DNA of 40,508 bases, taken from the IMG/VR virus record IMGVR_UViG_3300035494_000155, positions 1 to 40,508 of that record; one strand, written 5' to 3'. Origin of the DNA: a virus (taxonomy: Duplodnaviria > Caudoviricetes). The notes beneath the pieces were generated by a model. The model was not told where the DNA came from. It saw only the letters and a list, made by a program, of their open reading frames with translations, and ran no database searches. Below are positions 13,154 through 24,232 of this stretch, one piece after another. The translations under genes were made by a program, and so were the position numbers. Every line of letters starts with the position of its first letter. Within the stretch, counting starts at the first letter, position 1.

Positions 13154-13651
13154 ATGAATATTTTCGTACTAGACAAAGACCCTTTTATGGCGGCACAAGC
13201 CCACTATGATAAACACGTAGTGAAGATGCTACTTGAGTCTGCACAGATGCTATGCACAGTTGCTAACAGCCTCGGCTTTAAGACACCTTATAAGCCTACT
13301 CACAGAAACCATCCATGCACCAAGTGGGTGGGAGAAAGCAAACAAAACTTTGATTGGTTACTTGACCTAGCTATATTTTTAAATGCAGAATGGAAATTGA
13401 GATATAATCACCCTAAAGACAAAAACCATAAGTCTATGCAGGTTTTATTCTATGGGTTTGGCTGGGATAAGGTTAGGAAAAAGCTACCTGATATTGGGCT
13501 TACTCCTTTTGCACAGGCCATGCCAGAGGAGTTTCAAGGACCTGATGCAGTTGAAGCCTATCGTAAGTATTACATGAAAGACAAAGCTCACTTAAAAGCT
13601 TACACTAACAGAGAAGAACCTGAATGGATGAAGGAGCAAACAAATGTTTAA
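13154..13651 (+). CDS. Pyrimidine-dimer DNA glycosylase / DenV-family-like protein
   Basis: MNIFVLD..DKHVVKMLLESAQML, HPCTKW, PFAQAMP, AVEAYRKYY motifs. Confidence 0.8.
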   Translation: MNIFVLDKDPFMAAQAHYDKHVVKMLLESAQMLCTVANSLGFKTPYKPTHRNHPCTKWVGESKQNFDWLLDLAIFLNAEWKLRYNHPKDKNHKSMQVLFYGFGWDKVRKKLPDIGLTPFAQAMPEEFQGPDAVEAYRKYYMKDKAHLKAYTNREEPEWMKEQTNV

Positions 13652-13835
13652 AGTACCTGATACTCTTGTAGAGAAAGAGTTTGAAGCTATGGTAGCTAAA
13701 ATTGAAGGGCTTGGATTTAAAGTTACTTATAATGAAGATGACTTATGGGAAGAGGCTCTTATCAAAGCCACTGACAGATACGTAGATATGTGCGAGATGA
13801 AAATTGAAGAAGCCAAAATGGAGAAGGTGAAATGA
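13644..13835 (+). CDS. Hypothetical protein
   Basis: AAGGAG RBS, overlaps both neighbours. Confidence 0.75.
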   Translation: MFKVPDTLVEKEFEAMVAKIEGLGFKVTYNEDDLWEEALIKATDRYVDMCEMKIEEAKMEKVK

Positions 13836-14548: not shown

Positions 14549-15103
14549 ATGAAAGTTAAGTTACTACATACAAACGGATTAGAGTTTAGCGATAGTGCTA
14601 TTGGATTATGCTACGACAAAGGTTGTTATACTGATGAAGAGAAGCGTGATAATAGAATTAAGAAAGTTGCTTTAAAGCATAAACACAGCTCAACTATTGA
14701 GTTTACCAACTTCATCTTTGAGATTGAAGCAAGCACAAAAGTTCTATTAGAGATGACCAGACACAGAATTGCTAACTATGCCTGCAAGTCCAGTAGATAT
14801 ACTCTAAATAAAGGTGAGATAGTATTTGAGGAAACGGGAAATAGCGTTATAGATGGTTTATTAGAAGACTGGAGAAGGAATATTGAAGCTTGTGTAAAAG
14901 CAGGATACTCTAATGAGCATACAAGCTTAATGCTACCACAAGCCTATCAGTATAGATGGCAAGTACAATTCAACGCTAGGAGTCTTATGAACTTCCTAGA
15001 ACTAAGAAGAGCTCCATCTGCCCATTATCATATTAGAGAGGTTGCAGAAGCTATGTATAGCTGTGTCCCAGATGATATGAAATATTTATTTAACGAAGAG
15101 TAA
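14549..15103 (+). CDS. thyX: FAD-dependent thymidylate synthase
   Basis: HSSTIEF, RHR-x7-S motif (RHRIANYACKSSRY), NARSLMNFLELR..AHYHIR. Confidence 0.95.
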   Translation: MKVKLLHTNGLEFSDSAIGLCYDKGCYTDEEKRDNRIKKVALKHKHSSTIEFTNFIFEIEASTKVLLEMTRHRIANYACKSSRYTLNKGEIVFEETGNSVIDGLLEDWRRNIEACVKAGYSNEHTSLMLPQAYQYRWQVQFNARSLMNFLELRRAPSAHYHIREVAEAMYSCVPDDMKYLFNEE

Positions 15104-17922: not shown

Positions 17923-17950
17923 AGGGAGGCTTTGGCCTCTCTTTTTATTT
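17923..17950 (+). terminator. Intrinsic terminator
   Basis: GGGAGGC-TTTG-GCCTCTC followed by TTTTTATTT. Confidence 0.8.
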
Positions 17951-17982
17951 ATCTACTAAATCTATTGCGTAGGAGCAAACAA

Positions 17983-19863
17983 ATGTTACCATTTCAATAT
18001 AAATACGTCTCTTCTATAGACCAACTTCCTAACTTCTCCCCAGATTATCCGGTATTTGCAGATATTGAGTCTGATGGGCTTTATATTAATACTAGAGTTA
18101 TTCAGTACTATCAGCCAGAAACTGACCCTTATGTTTACATTCTGGATGTAGGGTACTTCGGAGAACACACTAAGAATGCTTCCACCACTAATGCACTCTT
18201 CAAAGCATTGGGAAAATCGCATGTAGCTAAGGTAACCAGAAAACAGATAGAAGAGCTGCATAAACCCCTATGGTTAGTTTGGTGGAATGGGTCTTATGAC
18301 CAAGGAACTTTAAGAGTAGGCTCTAAGAAAGTAGATGACTTATGGTATATGGCTAAGATAGCATTACCAAAATTATCAGAATTTAACCTTGACGTAGTCA
18401 CTAATCACCTATTCCCTAAACAAAACTTCTATGGGGATATAAACAAAAAACAAATGCACAAGGCTAACTGGGCAGCCGCAGTACTTGATGAGCTACAGCT
18501 AAAGTATGCTGCTACTGATGTATACGTTATGAAGCTTATCTGGGACAAAATATACCCTAAGGTTAAGGATAACAGGGCATACCAAGTAGATAGCTTAAAC
18601 CTTGGGTATGCAGTCAGATGGCAGCAAAATGGTCTTAAGGTTAAAGAGTCTGTAAGAAAAGCCACAGAATTAGAGTACCAAACAAAACTAGCTGAGGTAA
18701 AAACCAAGTTTCCCGTTGAGCTAAATGTAAATAGCTTTCAACAGGTACGGGCTTTATTGGCAGCTTATGATTTAGGATGGGATGTTTCTACTCCTGAAAA
18801 GTGGAAGTTAGCCTTAGAAAAACACAAAGAGAATCCGGTTGTAAAAGAATCAGATGAAACAGCCTTATTAACCAGAGCTGCTAAAGGATGTCCATACTCA
18901 GAGCTTATCCTAGAAGAAAGAGGAATTATAAAAACCTTAGGTTTCTTGGAAGGTTACAACAGAGACAGAGTATATTCTCATTATAATCCTTACGGAGCTA
19001 GAACAGGCAGATGGGTCTCTAAAGGAGGAGATAGGGAAGAAGCTGCAAACCTACAACAGCTACCTCGTAAACTTAAAAAAGTATTTGGTTTTGAGGAAGA
19101 AGATGATAGAGTATTCGTTGGAGCTGACTTACCAACGGCTGAGCTAAGGCTTATTGCTGCTGTGTATGGAGAGCATACAATGGCGGAGTGCTTTAGAAAT
19201 GATATAGATATTCACTATCGTACTGCATCTAATACCTTAGGTAAGCCTATAGACCAAGTTACTTCTGATGAACGTAAAAAGGCCAAAGCTGAAAACTTTG
19301 GATTATGTTATGGCATGGGGGCTGATAAATTCCAGGCTTATGCCTTTACTAACTATGACATCATTATGACCATAGAGGAAGCAGAAGCAAGGAGAAACTC
19401 ATGGATGGCCGCTTACCCTGACCAAGCCCGATTCTTAGATAAAATTAAAAAGGACTTCTTTAAAGGGGACCTTGTAGTTAAGACTTTGCTAAATAGATGG
19501 GTAAAGCCTGATATGTATACCGATGCAAGTAATATACCTATTCAAGGAGGGATTGCAGAAGTTGCTAAAATATGGATACACTATCTTCATGTATTAGCTA
19601 AGGAGGAATATGGAATACGTAAGTTACCAATCATAGTGGATAATAACAACATAGTATACAACATGCCAGTAGCTAACTTTGTGCATGATAGCTTAACACT
19701 TGAAGCTCAAAATAAAGCAGAAGCTGATGATTGGAAAGACCTGTTATACCGAAGTTGTGATAAGGCCTGGGATTACTATATGAGTTTACCAGGGATCCTT
19801 ATTAGAGATATACCAATGCCTTTAGAAGTAGGAATTGGAAAAAGCTATGGCGATGCCAGCTAA
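17983..19863 (+). CDS. polA: Family A DNA polymerase with 3'-5' exonuclease
   Basis: ADIES ExoI, YAATD ExoIII, RTGR, NLQQLP, motif A DLPTAELR, motif B RKKAKAENFGLCYG, motif C VHDS; start moved to ATG 17983 behind AGGAG. Confidence 0.95.
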   Translation: MLPFQYKYVSSIDQLPNFSPDYPVFADIESDGLYINTRVIQYYQPETDPYVYILDVGYFGEHTKNASTTNALFKALGKSHVAKVTRKQIEELHKPLWLVWWNGSYDQGTLRVGSKKVDDLWYMAKIALPKLSEFNLDVVTNHLFPKQNFYGDINKKQMHKANWAAAVLDELQLKYAATDVYVMKLIWDKIYPKVKDNRAYQVDSLNLGYAVRWQQNGLKVKESVRKATELEYQTKLAEVKTKFPVELNVNSFQQVRALLAAYDLGWDVSTPEKWKLALEKHKENPVVKESDETALLTRAAKGCPYSELILEERGIIKTLGFLEGYNRDRVYSHYNPYGARTGRWVSKGGDREEAANLQQLPRKLKKVFGFEEEDDRVFVGADLPTAELRLIAAVYGEHTMAECFRNDIDIHYRTASNTLGKPIDQVTSDERKKAKAENFGLCYGMGADKFQAYAFTNYDIIMTIEEAEARRNSWMAAYPDQARFLDKIKKDFFKGDLVVKTLLNRWVKPDMYTDASNIPIQGGIAEVAKIWIHYLHVLAKEEYGIRKLPIIVDNNNIVYNMPVANFVHDSLTLEAQNKAEADDWKDLLYRSCDKAWDYYMSLPGILIRDIPMPLEVGIGKSYGDAS

Positions 19864-20809: not shown

Positions 20810-21123
20810 AATGGCCTACTAAGGAGCAGGTAGAAGAACAGATACTAGTACATGGAGTATCTTATACATCTAGTTTCTGGAAAACACTGCAGATACAAGA
20901 AAAGCTTGTTTTAACTGTAGAACAGGCTGAGATATACCACATAGTTCAAAAGGCTCATGTAGAGCTAACAGGACATAGTTTACCAGATACTATCAAAGGT
21001 TCTATGAAAACTCGGGCTCAAATTAGAAATGAGATCGGGGAAGTGGACGAAACTAAAATAGAAAATGCAGTACAGTCTGGAATGATGGCTAAGCTAGCAA
21101 AATTAAGAGGAGAAAACAAATGA
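20788..21123 (+). CDS. Hypothetical protein
   Basis: GGAGG RBS, overlap-coupled. Confidence 0.75.
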   Translation: MATNGKLEWPTKEQVEEQILVHGVSYTSSFWKTLQIQEKLVLTVEQAEIYHIVQKAHVELTGHSLPDTIKGSMKTRAQIRNEIGEVDETKIENAVQSGMMAKLAKLRGENK

Positions 21124-21470
21124 GTATGGGAAATAATGAAGGAACAGTAGCTGATACTTTAAAACAAAGAGGGTTAGTATACGGTAGCTATAAAGAGGTA
21201 TGTGAAGTTAGGGCTAAAATCTTAGATTTACTTAGCAAACATCACGTAGCTGTTACCGGTAAGCCAATGGATGATAGAACTCTTTTAGGTTTTAGTGACG
21301 TGGTGCTAAAGCTTGTAAGAGCTGCAGGGAAGCCTGAGTATGAAGACAGTTGGCATGATTTGGCGGGGTATGCTACTTTAATGGAAGATATAGCTAAATC
21401 TGGCAAGACTCTTAAAGATGCCTTGGCTATTAGTGACTTAAGCAAAGCATTTGAGGGAGGTACTAAATGA
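21120..21470 (+). CDS. DUF6378-like small helical protein (possibly nucleotide-related)
   Basis: L.QRG..YG.Y, KLVR, DSWHDLAGYATL motifs. Confidence 0.7.
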   Translation: MSMGNNEGTVADTLKQRGLVYGSYKEVCEVRAKILDLLSKHHVAVTGKPMDDRTLLGFSDVVLKLVRAAGKPEYEDSWHDLAGYATLMEDIAKSGKTLKDALAISDLSKAFEGGTK

Positions 21471-22186
21471 AAAATATAGTTAAGAAACTAAGAGATAGAC
21501 TGGTAGATACTGGGTATGTAATTAGTACTTCTAGCTGGCAAGGAACTAAAACTCCTCCAGCTATGGTAGAAATACCTCATGTATCTGAAGTGGTAAAAAT
21601 GCTTGAAGACCCTAAAGAGTTATCTGATGCTGTTAATGCTAAGCAGCCGTGGGCTAATATACACTTCAAAGAAAGAACTCAAGGGTATGCAACTAACCCT
21701 GACCCCTCACATGAGATGTGGGCTAGTAGTACCCATGACTATAAATTGGATGATACTAAATTTAGCCATACTTACTCTGAGAGAATGTGGCCTTCAGCTC
21801 TTTTACCAAAAGGTATTAGATTTAAAACTGGGGACCTATATACCCTGGTACAGCTATTGCAAAAAGAGCCGGATACAAGACAAGCATACATGCCTATGTA
21901 TTTACACGAAGACTTAACTGCTGCTTTAGAAGGTGAGAGGGTTCCTTGTTCTTTGGGATGGCACTTTATTATACGTAACGGTACTTTAGATGTTATGTAT
22001 ACGATGAGAAGCTGTGATGCTATGAGACACCTACAAAATGATATCTATTTTGCTAACAAGTTAGCCCTATGGGTAAGAGAACAAGCAGGGCTAGAAGTAA
22101 AGATGGGTGTCCTACACTTGGTTATTACAAGCTTACACTGCTTTCAGCAAGACATTGCAATTTATAAAAAAGGATTAATCAAATGA
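21467..22186 (+). CDS. ThyA-fold dCMP hydroxymethylase/methylase-like enzyme
   Basis: TRQA, catalytic PC (C161), MRSCD-x7-D (D192, dCMP-type), SLH. Confidence 0.8.
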   Translation: MKNIVKKLRDRLVDTGYVISTSSWQGTKTPPAMVEIPHVSEVVKMLEDPKELSDAVNAKQPWANIHFKERTQGYATNPDPSHEMWASSTHDYKLDDTKFSHTYSERMWPSALLPKGIRFKTGDLYTLVQLLQKEPDTRQAYMPMYLHEDLTAALEGERVPCSLGWHFIIRNGTLDVMYTMRSCDAMRHLQNDIYFANKLALWVREQAGLEVKMGVLHLVITSLHCFQQDIAIYKKGLIK

Positions 22187-23187
22187 GAGTATTAGGAATA
22201 GAAGGAAACATAGGTAGTATGCTTTATCCTTTTCAAGAAGCAGGGCATGAGGTGGTAGGAAACTATGACTCAAGAGGTATAGTCAATGAGAAAAATTTTA
22301 AATTAAATTTCCCCTCTTCTGTATTATTCAAATCTCTAAAAGAAGTGGAGGAGTTAACTGATATCGATGTTGTCGTTGCTCAGCCTAGCTGTAGCAAATT
22401 TTCCCAGCTATCTAGAAGAGACAAAGACGACTACTCATTTGACGTATGCGTGGACCTTGCTTATTATCTTGAGAAGCTAAAGCCCAAATTCTTTTTTATA
22501 GAGTCTAAGCTAGACTATATCTATGAGGTACCTAAAGTGCCAGGCTATAGCTATCAGCTGGAATGGGTTAGTAACTATTATTACGGGAATACTCAGAAAG
22601 GTAGAAATAGGCTGTGGGTTATGGGGATAAGAGAAGATATGGACTGGGTCTTTGTCCCTAGAGAAGAAGAACACAAAAATACGGTGGAGAGTGTAATAGC
22701 TGACCTACCAGCTAAGGATGATAAAGACTTAGACCACTTACACGTATATAAGCCTTTCTTAAAGAATAGCATTACACAAGAGTACTTAACCCTAGATGAG
22801 GCCTTTGAAATGCTGCAAAAAGAAGGAAGACTAAGTTACATAGCTTCTGACGGAAAGATTAAGCATCGTATTAATCGTAAGCTAGCTAAGCGAACCTCAT
22901 CTACTACTATAACAGGCGGAGGAACATGGTTTCACTGGAGTAAGAAATATCCGCTAACCGTTAGGGAAAAGGCCAGAATACAAGGGTTCCCAGATAGCTT
23001 TAGTTTTAAGGGCCTCTCCGCTTCCAAAAAAGATAAAGCCGTGGGTAAAAGCATGCCTATGGAGTTCACAAGATATCTGGTTGGGCTATTGGATGGGTCA
23101 ATTAAGCCTAAACAACCAAGAAAAATAGTGGCGGACCCACTAAAGCTGGTAATTTTTAAGCAAAAATCACAATTTAAAATAAAATAG
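22183..23187 (+). CDS. Divergent C5-cytosine DNA methyltransferase-like enzyme
   Basis: Motif IV QPSCSKFS, VI FIES, VIII QKGRNR, IX LTVREKARIQGFPD, X AVGKSMP; degenerate motif I GIEGNIGS. Confidence 0.88.
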   Translation: MRVLGIEGNIGSMLYPFQEAGHEVVGNYDSRGIVNEKNFKLNFPSSVLFKSLKEVEELTDIDVVVAQPSCSKFSQLSRRDKDDYSFDVCVDLAYYLEKLKPKFFFIESKLDYIYEVPKVPGYSYQLEWVSNYYYGNTQKGRNRLWVMGIREDMDWVFVPREEEHKNTVESVIADLPAKDDKDLDHLHVYKPFLKNSITQEYLTLDEAFEMLQKEGRLSYIASDGKIKHRINRKLAKRTSSTTITGGGTWFHWSKKYPLTVREKARIQGFPDSFSFKGLSASKKDKAVGKSMPMEFTRYLVGLLDGSIKPKQPRKIVADPLKLVIFKQKSQFKIK

Positions 23188-23396: not shown

Positions 23397-23672
23397 ATGA
23401 ACCAAATTATCGAGGTAGAAGATGTTAGGGAAGCTGCTATGGAGGCCCTAAAGAATGATAGCAGCCTAACTAAATACAAACTGGCTAAAACCTTAAATTT
23501 ATCAACGGCCTCCCACATAAACAACTTCCTTACAGGGAATACTAAGAAGACTAGATTAGCAGTTAAGAAGCTATTCTTTACTCGACTTAATATCCTAATT
23601 AAGGATTTCAAAGATACGCCAGAATATAAAAGACTTACAGAAAAACCAACATCAGAGGATATAAAAGTATGA
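23397..23672 (+). CDS. XRE-like HTH DNA-binding protein
   Basis: LTKYKLAKTLNLSTASHINNFLTG helix-turn-helix pattern. Confidence 0.7.
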   Translation: MNQIIEVEDVREAAMEALKNDSSLTKYKLAKTLNLSTASHINNFLTGNTKKTRLAVKKLFFTRLNILIKDFKDTPEYKRLTEKPTSEDIKV

Positions 23673-24232
23673 CAGAATTAACAAGATTAAGAGACCTAAC
23701 ATTGAAATGGTCTAGCGACCGAGGTATTATCACTAATGGTAAGACTATTACTCAAGCCCTAAAGCTTAGTAGTGAAATGGGAGAATTAGCAGGTAATGTA
23801 TTAAGGCATAAAGATTTTAGAGATGACATAGGAGACTGCTTAGTTGTACTAACTAATATGTATGCATTAGAAGGTTCTGATATCTTAAATAGTTGGGAAG
23901 ACCTAGTTGTTCCTTTCTTTAATTACCCATTAGAGTTTATAGCGGCTTTAGCTGAAGCTAAGGGCAACCTAGATGATAACCTAGCTAAGCAAAAGCCTAT
24001 ACTAGAAAACATGGGTACCATTATAGGAATACTTAAAGGGATAAGCTACTACCATGAGCTTACTATCATTGAGTGCTGGGAAAAAGCCTATAATGATATT
24101 AAAGACCGTAAAGGGTTCTTGAATGAGCACGGAAACTTTATTAAAGAGTCTGACCCTTCATATGAGCTACTATATAAGAAGTTTTTATCTTCTAAGGCTA
24201 GCCTATTTGATACAGAGGCTGACAATGCTTAA
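23669..24232 (+). CDS. MazG-like nucleotide pyrophosphohydrolase
   Basis: QALKLSSEMGELA..DDIGDCLVVL, degenerate second repeat, ECWEKAYNDIKDRKG..GNFIKE. Confidence 0.85.
   Translation: MTELTRLRDLTLKWSSDRGIITNGKTITQALKLSSEMGELAGNVLRHKDFRDDIGDCLVVLTNMYALEGSDILNSWEDLVVPFFNYPLEFIAALAEAKGNLDDNLAKQKPILENMGTIIGILKGISYYHELTIIECWEKAYNDIKDRKGFLNEHGNFIKESDPSYELLYKKFLSSKASLFDTEADNA

Follow-up and report, generated by a model that had tools for sequence, protein, structure and literature searches.

What does a phage enzyme do that is built like a DNA cytosine-C5 methyltransferase and keeps all residues which activate the base, while the residues which should hold the cofactor are replaced? The question is raised by a gene at 22183..23187 of a 40,508-nucleotide stretch of tailed-phage DNA (Caudoviricetes; IMG/VR record IMGVR_UViG_3300035494_000155, positions 1 to 40,508), here called the window. 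The original prediction, made from the sequence alone, saw a Lys in place of the motif X Asn and proposed a DNA carboxymethyltransferase which uses carboxy-S-adenosylmethionine (Cx-SAM), the product of CmoA, from its host. A natural DNA carboxymethyltransferase is no longer a first: CmoX of Synechococcus phage S-B43, which uses Cx-SAM (PDB 8YF3), was published in December 2025 (PMC12783734). We arrive at a different proposal. Acting after replication, the enzyme would attack C6 of a cytosine that already carries a group at C5 and would exchange or extend this group, with Lys289 and Arg31 holding an anion; we assign this reading a probability of about 45%. The added group is likely neither methyl nor carboxymethyl. 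The enzyme is a variant of the C5-methyltransferase fold whose chemistry could be new in kind. The features on which the argument turns are as follows.

22183..23187, + strand: C5-methyltransferase-fold enzyme with a rebuilt cofactor pocket, 334 residues (Pfam, AlphaFold2/Foldseek, family alignments)
22195..22218, + strand: motif I, GIEGNIGS, starting at residue 5; corresponds to D16-L-F18-A-G20-L-G22-G23 of M.HhaI
22267..22275, + strand: motif II, D29-S30-R31; ribose-binding acid kept, new Arg at M.HhaI Asp42
22390..22395, + strand: catalytic Cys70-Ser71; corresponds to C81, Q82 of M.HhaI and C98, S99 of CmoX
22501..22509, + strand: motif VI, E107-S-K (canonical ENV; family alignment)
22594..22611, + strand: motif VIII, Q138-x-x-R141-x-R143, cytosine O2 recognition kept (family alignment)
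23047..23049, + strand: motif X Lys289 (AAA); corresponds to M.HhaI Asn304 and CmoX Arg350

The fold is clear. The 334-residue protein matches Pfam DNA_methylase (E 1e-21), its AlphaFold2 model has a predicted local distance difference test score (pLDDT) of 89.8, and the best Foldseek matches are C5-methyltransferases. When 48,161 chains were searched with this model the top 19 rows were all C5-methyltransferases; VIA Z scores are 19-23 against M.HhaI, M.HaeIII, CmoX (8yf3) and M.MpeI. A Rossmann catalytic domain and a target-recognition domain are present, with the motifs in order (Pfam, Foldseek, profile alignment). The enzyme shares fold, motif order, catalytic Cys, motif VI acid, RxR and motif IX with M.HhaI and M.HaeIII (PF00145, TIGR00675) and with M.MpeI, and its target-recognition region has the T-hydrophobic-T of canonical enzymes. 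Cys70, Glu107 and the motif VIII residues are kept as had been predicted, and GIEGNIGS and the Ser following the catalytic Cys lie where they had been read. Residue equivalences with M.HhaI and CmoX come from sequence alignment, not from residue-level structural superposition. The family profile aligned to M.HhaI (10mh) covers F18, G23, E40-W41-D42, C81-Q82, E119, R163/R165 and N304. Because this profile puts the family Lys on Asn304, Lys289 is assigned to the motif X Asn, and direct alignment puts it on CmoX Arg350; the predicted placement thus appears sound at the level of alignment.

The cofactor pocket presents a different picture. Motif I has Gly at M.HhaI Asp16, Glu7 where Phe18 is lost, and Ser at Gly23, i.e., the FxGxGG pattern is absent. 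For the positions compared here we take the role in SAM (S-adenosylmethionine) contact from the M.HhaI structure. Gln82 and Asn304 of M.HhaI are the positions engineered to admit bulky SAM analogues. Relatives comprised 33 close sequences plus those found when 1.84 billion representatives were searched with a profile (103 with E of 1e-30 or lower; the best 150 listed). From these searches 365 distinct sequences of 290-540 residues went into a FastTree, where the window protein falls in a clade of 179 (103 at <50% identity) that does not include CmoX. This clade is the family for which residues were counted, against the other 186 sequences of the tree.

At the Asp16 position the family has Gly in 153/169, the others in 4/182. 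Phe18 is Phe in 3/169 family members and in 170/183 of the others; Gly23 has become Ser (130) or Val (20 of 169), against Gly in 177/183. Asp60 of motif III, in a poorly aligned loop, is found in 28/179 versus 138/186. Gln82 is replaced by Gly (136) or Ser (30 of 176) where the others have Gln in 173/185. At motif X the family has Lys in 145, Arg in 14 and another residue in 18 of 177 (Asn in 5/177), whereas outside the family Asn prevails (169/180). The position of Asp42 is Arg in 174/174 members, and in 103/103 after thinning to <50% identity; the others have Asp (121), Asn (21) or Glu (15 of 185). Being invariant, Arg31 is a stricter family signature than Lys289; the original prediction did not mention it. 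Thus, FxGxGG, Asp60, Gln82 and Asn304 of the canonical enzymes are not kept, and the Arg at Asp42 is invariant. The residues that act on the base are retained: catalytic Cys in 176/176, a motif VI acid throughout (Asp 107, Glu 72 of 179), Arg143 in 179/179 and Arg141 in 178/179. Catalytic residues which stay invariant while the SAM pocket is replaced across 179 sequences support a reaction without SAM. The subclade of the window is the most rebuilt of the family (Glu7, Asn9, Ser30, ESK). The gene is under purifying selection, with pN (nonsynonymous) of ~0.19-0.20 against pS (synonymous) of ~0.77-0.78 relative to two relatives. Judged by family conservation and pN/pS, the pocket changes are neither chance nor decay. 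By its sequence, the protein is a C5-methyltransferase fold member which matches the signature neither of an ordinary methyltransferase nor of CmoX.

Databases label these proteins ordinary cytosine methyltransferases, in GenBank as well as in protein clusters, and the simplest explanation would be a diverged but ordinary SAM-dependent 5-methylcytosine (5mC) methyltransferase that marks leftover unmodified cytosines. In its favour, no catalytic motif has been lost, the ribose-binding acid and Gly22 persist, and some active methyltransferases tolerate changes in motif I. Here, four positions that contact SAM are altered at once, and a pair of basic residues has appeared beside the site of a cationic cofactor. 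The enzyme scores 56.5 with the NCBIfam dcm model, below the cut-off of 100.65, and NCBIfam has no model for the family. Further, ordinary methylation gives no reason for the link to thymidylate synthase described below, and no family member was found among the 80 cellular loci listed. From these alignments a plain SAM methyltransferase appears very unlikely. The degenerate cofactor site could likewise belong to a protein that binds modified DNA without catalysis or traps it covalently, or to a decoy for host nucleases. We give this little credit: turnover chemistry is suggested by the Cys present in every member scored, by new invariant pocket residues and by inteins inserted at this Cys.

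Where does the family occur? It was found here only in phages. The nearest ESM Atlas clusters contain DNA_methylase only and are 97-100% viral. Cellular genomes yielded no family member among the 80 loci listed of 105, with Asn-type enzymes where scored, in a scan of limited sensitivity because the search patterns came from the close clade. Single-protein scans of IMG/VR returned no relatives, whereas alignment-based scans did find them. Cultured phages hold no close relative (2 weak GenBank matches, 15 weak ones for a broad-clade member), hence there is no virion chemistry to borrow. In open papers we found no description of this enzyme family or of the synthase subtype beside it.

This synthase suggests which substrate the enzyme may use. 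The ATG of the enzyme overlaps the TGA of the gene upstream (ATGA at 22183-22186), the identity of which was also absent from the original prediction; this gene and others that would belong to the same pathway are the following.

21467..22186, + strand: thymidylate-synthase (TS)-fold enzyme, cytosine type (Pfam); its stop overlaps the enzyme start
21120..21470, + strand: DUF6378 protein, candidate nucleotide pyrophosphohydrolase (Pfam); overlaps the TS-like start
23669..24232, + strand: MazG-like pyrophosphatase, candidate dCTPase (PHROG)
14549..15103, + strand: ThyX (Pfam Thy1, E 3e-33)
17932..19863, + strand: family A DNA polymerase, PolA (Pfam); likely the incorporator of modified dCTP

DUF6378 would act as a nucleotide pyrophosphohydrolase. 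ThyX is a separate route to dTMP and would leave the TS-like gene free for another job. The TS-like protein has the catalytic Cys161, Asp184 (ThyA D169), Asp192 at ThyA N177, and His188 at Gly173. Three residues before the Cys, at ThyA L143 and T4 D145, it carries Arg158 (codon 21938-21940). The best PDB matches are the CMP hydroxymethylase MilA (template modelling score, TM, 0.78) and the dCMP hydroxylase HY126. Asp at ThyA 177 is a mark of cytosine substrates (PMC8670742). Deoxycytidylate hydroxylases have Asn at ThyA 169 (PMC13326640), where the partner keeps Asp184; T4 dCMP hydroxymethylase needs the Asp which is Arg here (PMC6400193). The partner therefore agrees with T4 dCMP hydroxymethylase, MilA and HY126 in TS fold, catalytic Cys and cytosine-selecting Asp, and departs from each known type: Arg158 replaces the Asp/Glu of hydroxymethylases and the Leu of thymidylate synthases, Asp169 is kept, unlike in hydroxylases, and Gly173 is His. 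The Arg/Asp/Asp (R/D/D) signature is present in 84/84 and 28/28 parsed relatives. We estimate ~820 stored stretches with such a synthase in IMG/VR, and it occurs in cultured phages as well. Judged from these residues, the Arg143-type TS (ThyA numbering) is probably a large uncharacterised thymidylate-synthase subtype.

The association of enzyme and synthase is close in one direction only. Of 30 viral family loci from IMG/VR, 24 carry TS, 22 a dCMP deaminase and 19 an asparagine-synthetase-like gene. TS is present in 0/44 ordinary C5-methyltransferase control loci of like length; one of the original 45, L047, did carry TS but proved a family fragment and was moved to the family. The family counts leave out L048, L051, L077 and two enzymes of L133, all outside the clade. 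Of six family loci without TS, L020 has it elsewhere in its complete genome and three are fragments, 6-48% complete; the search beyond the locus covered four of the six. Recurrent neighbours are a P-loop kinase, a pyrophosphatase, DUF6378 (15/35 loci examined) and an NPPY amino-methyltransferase; PolA is present in 21/35. The pyrophosphatase, kinase and deaminase genes near TS in the relatives form a T4-like set. In a distant subclade, covered by the best 80 of 292 loci (alignment A4), motif X is Lys in 72/80. TS lies within 6 kb in 1/80 of these loci, yet it was found in 28/28 long records searched whole, all R/D/D. The converse does not hold. In a TS-picked set of 85 loci (78 of the best 80 of 582, plus 7 from GenBank) the enzyme is present in 2, and it was found in 0/19 T4-like TS records and 0/6 cultured-phage records, where positive controls were detected. 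No complete genome was seen with the enzyme and without TS. A one-way dependence of this kind is what an optional later step, acting on a base made by TS, would show, and the pairing is seen in the podovirus-like backbone of the window as well as in others. Among the distant-subclade loci listed, the genes just downstream of the enzyme are terminase-like or lysis-like, as would suit late action. Gene context thus favours what the original prediction had offered as a secondary guess, action on an already modified cytosine.

A comparable gene set is known. The clusters of 5-hydroxymethylcytosine (5hmC) carbamoyltransferases combine, as here, a TS homologue, a PRA-PH pyrophosphatase, a dCMP deaminase and a single tailoring enzyme; there the latter is a carbamoyltransferase, and the main text describes no methyltransferase-like partners (PMC8670742). 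The neighbourhoods also bear on the possibility that the enzyme transfers a group to plain cytosine from some other adenosine-linked or phosphate donor, e.g., an acyl-adenylate, an NAD-type or a nucleotide-linked compound. Reasoning from the fold, the kept ribose-binding acid, the Ser that begins the helix following motif I, and Arg31 and Lys289, which suit phosphate, would accommodate it. The family neighbourhoods share no donor-making gene besides the TS set, and the TS link is left unexplained; we consider such a donor improbable.

What, then, of Cx-SAM? In this explanation the enzyme is a carboxymethyltransferase of the CmoX or M.MpeI N374K type that acts on plain cytosine with host-made Cx-SAM. 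The likeness to CmoX is real. Both are phage-encoded and share the fold (Z 21.6, root mean square deviation 3.5, 267 residues aligned), and the enzyme is 24% identical over 184 residues to CmoX taken from the S-B43 record, with Lys289 at Arg350 and Ser71 at Ser99. A basic residue (K/R) occupies motif X in 159/177 of the family. Both the space apparently opened at C5 (Gln82 to Ser/Gly) and the basic residue at Asn304 are as in CmoX. Motif X is Lys here and Arg in CmoX; Lys functions in M.MpeI N374K, the use of Cx-SAM by which was quoted in the original prediction and is confirmed (PMC13288465). In E. coli, host CmoA can supply CmoX (PMC12783734). An asparagine-synthetase-like gene, as in some CmoX clusters, lies beside 19/30 relatives. 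The cultured phages nearest by portal infect Gammaproteobacteria, a group known to carry cmoA.

The differences are more telling. CmoX has Arg350 at Asn304 together with intact SAM contacts, Phe25, Glu47, Phe48 and Asp69 (PMC12783734). Of its residues, Phe25, Gly30, Phe48 and Asp69 have no counterpart in the enzyme (Glu7, Ser30, no Asp), its SPPC is QPSC in the enzyme and mostly HPxC in the family, it has no Arg at position 49, and it lies outside the clade. M.MpeI N374K differs from its parent by one substitution and has its SAM pocket intact, unlike the family. CmoX travels with cmoA, 4,257 CmoA for 5,615 CmoX sequences in the published survey (PMC12783734); the enzyme family travels with a TS homologue. 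We searched for cmoA (TIGR00740) in 59 family records (28 locus records, three non-clade ones left out, the window, two more, and 28 of the distant subclade). It was found in 0/59, 28 of which are at least 90% complete, while CmoA of S-B43 was recovered as control (E 2.5e-34). This extends to the family the earlier observation that the window, 97% complete, has no cmoA. The presumed host order of the Flandersviridae-like distant subclade is mostly without it as well: across 151 genomes taken from the order of a Bacteroides record, no CmoA scored over the cut-off, one reaching 164 bits. An AMP-forming ligase (CmoY) is absent from the window genome and from the complete relative G001, and was found in the S-B43 control. 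The asparagine-synthetase-like gene was considered as a CmoY and rejected: it follows TS (73/85 TS loci, with the enzyme in 2), comes without cmoA (0/19) and is missing from the window genome. Neither the TS link nor Arg31 is explained by Cx-SAM, and the main text of the CmoX paper mentions neither thymidylate synthase nor Lys variants (PMC12783734). Carboxymethylation from Cx-SAM is therefore unlikely, though we rate it above ordinary methylation. The claim of a non-methyl transfer stands to the extent that plain methylation is very unlikely, while the donor named for it does not find support.

We return to the substituted cytosine. A C5-substituted cytosine is not simply alkylated again; attack of a Cys on C6 can expel the group from a 5-CH2-X base, and a nucleophile can then add. 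Three precedents exist. Cysteamine is coupled to 5hmC by M.SssI (PMC7176277), C5-methyltransferases remove the hydroxymethyl group of 5hmC in a reaction that needs no SAM (PMC11347137), and phage aGPT-Pplase2 enzymes attack C6 with a Cys, form an exocyclic methylene and add amino acids (PMC8989533; PMC13458397). The latter resemble our proposal in each of these steps and in acting downstream of a TS-family hydroxymethylase. They differ in a helix-hairpin-helix, glycosylase-like fold, a uracil base and the need for a DNA kinase, i.e., the analogy is functional and does not imply homology.

The sequence of events could be as follows. The pyrophosphatases would supply dCMP, to which the TS-like enzyme would add a folate-derived carbon at C5; the product would be 5-hydroxymethyl-dCMP or another 5-CH2-X dCMP, where X may differ from hydroxyl because the water-activating Asp is Arg in the TS-like partner. 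PolA would build the modified dCMP into DNA. The base would be flipped and held by Glu107 and Arg143, residues which are present, and Cys70 would add to C6. Following the in vitro precedent, X might leave to give an exocyclic methylene. In what is the weakest step, a small nucleophile in the former SAM site would add to the methylene; Lys289 and Arg31 would hold an anion (a carboxylate or phosphate, carried by either the incoming or the leaving group), and the change of Gln82 to Ser would make room. The Asn304 position adjoins the C5 substituent, and a basic residue there would suit an anion on the existing or incoming group as well as it suits Cx-SAM. The hypermodified base would finally shield virion DNA from host nucleases. 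Taken further, and more tentatively, this is a SAM-free enzyme in which a latent side reaction of the fold on 5-substituted cytosine was turned into the main activity, working on the base of the Arg143-type TS and building a new hypermodified cytosine. Such a pathway would reach from marine T4-like phages and mycobacteriophage Muddy to gut Flandersviridae-like phages.

The same precedent on 5hmC would also allow the opposite, a site-specific eraser which removes the C5 group of the TS-made base at chosen sequences, e.g., for the host polymerase or the terminase. No donor is needed, which fits the lack of donor genes, and in one subclade the enzyme lies near terminase-like genes. Many phages run the TS system and have no such enzyme, however, and no precedent for such a phage function was found in the literature; an eraser is much less probable than an enzyme that exchanges or extends the group.

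Several points weigh against the exchange or extension that we favour. With Arg in place of the water-activating Asp, the product of the partner may be other than 5hmC and may even carry no leaving group. Lys289 plus Ser71 is the exact CmoX pattern, and host-made Cx-SAM keeps a small share of the probability for this particular phage. The ribose-binding acid (173/174), Gly22 (168/169) and often Trp41 (66/174) are kept, which leaves room for an adenosine-type cofactor. The window contains no kinase or donor-making gene by Pfam or PHROG. Support of the family node is weak, 0.52, with 0.91 one step above. Over 16 loci, distances in the enzyme tree follow PolA (r 0.68) rather than TS (r 0.34; partial 0.20), thus part of the pairing may be shared descent, and the 28 distant-subclade genomes are related and do not represent 28 independent events. 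Finally, the window avoids GATC, CTAG, CATG and CCGG, so that protection would be at most partial or recent.

If the proposal is true, a C5-methyltransferase fold was recruited for SAM-free chemistry and makes a new modified base. It would offer a sequence-specific tool for tagging modified cytosines and reveal a new anti-restriction layer in abundant gut phages. Since the Arg143-type TS occurs in cultured phages, its product is accessible from virion DNA. Even the other outcome, a Lys-type carboxymethyltransferase without its own cmoA, would extend a recently described system.

The window record is 97% complete by CheckV and has a podovirus-like backbone. Its P22-type portal is ~51% identical to those of Edwardsiella phage KF-1, Vibrio VPMS1 and Pseudoalteromonas PH1. 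Besides the genes given above it encodes a primase, a Dda helicase, a single-strand binding protein (SSB), an exonuclease and a ligase (Pfam/PHROG), and, in the early region at 13154-13651, a pyrimidine-dimer-glycosylase-like protein (weak Pfam Pyr_excise). Sequence words of the window were matched in metagenomes from tar-pit, hydrocarbon and aquatic settings; apart from two possible sources, three studies contain 0.35-0.59 of the words, and no RNA data set is listed among those matching; a promoter scan gave matches at chance level. GATC is strongly avoided (23 seen, 106 expected), and likewise the three other sites named above. CpG is scarce: 0.46 in the window, 0.26-0.81 in the family loci checked, and 0.09 in a TS-only phage. 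Because of the last value we draw no inference on CpG as a target site. The closest complete relative, L002, has a ribonucleotide reductase and a dCMP deaminase, both missing from the window, and at 13266-13751 a Tad2-like anti-Thoeris protein, which the window also lacks.

The TS type has surroundings of its own. Marine T4-like phages carry it in a tight module together with the glutamine-dependent asparagine-synthetase-like enzyme, a dCMP deaminase (76/85 loci) and the NPPY amino-methyltransferase (25). By gene content this module is likely a modified-nucleotide pathway of its own, probably undescribed. Cultured phages that have TS and lack the methyltransferase-like gene encode, in the position ahead of TS, a hypothetical family whose invariant Cys, Arg and Asp show the spacing seen in TS: L080 6099-6992 (Muddy gp47), L081 6171-6980 (Serbin gp51), L082, L083, L167, L168 and L254 8274-10041. 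Its match to the TS profile is weak (probability 12%, E 0.0025); it is possibly a second, diverged TS-fold enzyme or subunit. The distant-subclade phages appear to resemble Flandersviridae, as we infer from MT121964, which has adjoining IspD and LicD genes in its replication module, a mark of some Bacteroides-infecting Flandersviridae (PMC8008677). In this genome (L254, 11428-13048) both follow directly after the TS cluster. IspD and LicD may place a phospho-polyol or phosphocholine onto DNA bases and not, as proposed for them, onto the cell wall (PMC8008677).

Within the family, alignment breaks in longer members (an Asn-Cys-Gly junction, a P-then-NCG split) indicate probable inteins at the catalytic Cys, in P0035, P0038, P0042, P0086, P0087, P0093, P0102, P0108 and P0118. 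In L010 (9968-12274) the enzyme is fused to an N6/N4 amino-methyltransferase domain, which is a separate adjoining gene in at least 8 loci; the second, 290-residue 'methyltransferase' of the clusters is this unrelated NPPY amino-methyltransferase. L048 (9110-10363), L051 and L077 (8978-10330) form a separate C5-methyltransferase-like group with Gly-Lys at motif X and Phe18 kept, next to glycosyltransferase-like, epimerase and nucleotidyltransferase genes and without cmoA or the Arg-type TS. These features make them the better candidates for a non-methyl transferase of Lys type whose SAM pocket is intact. Lastly, L133 (4997-10394) combines on one contig two TS-like genes, a normal ThyA and two methyltransferase-like genes which are sister to the family; both have the acid-x-Arg motif, and motif X is GKA in one and GCG in the other.

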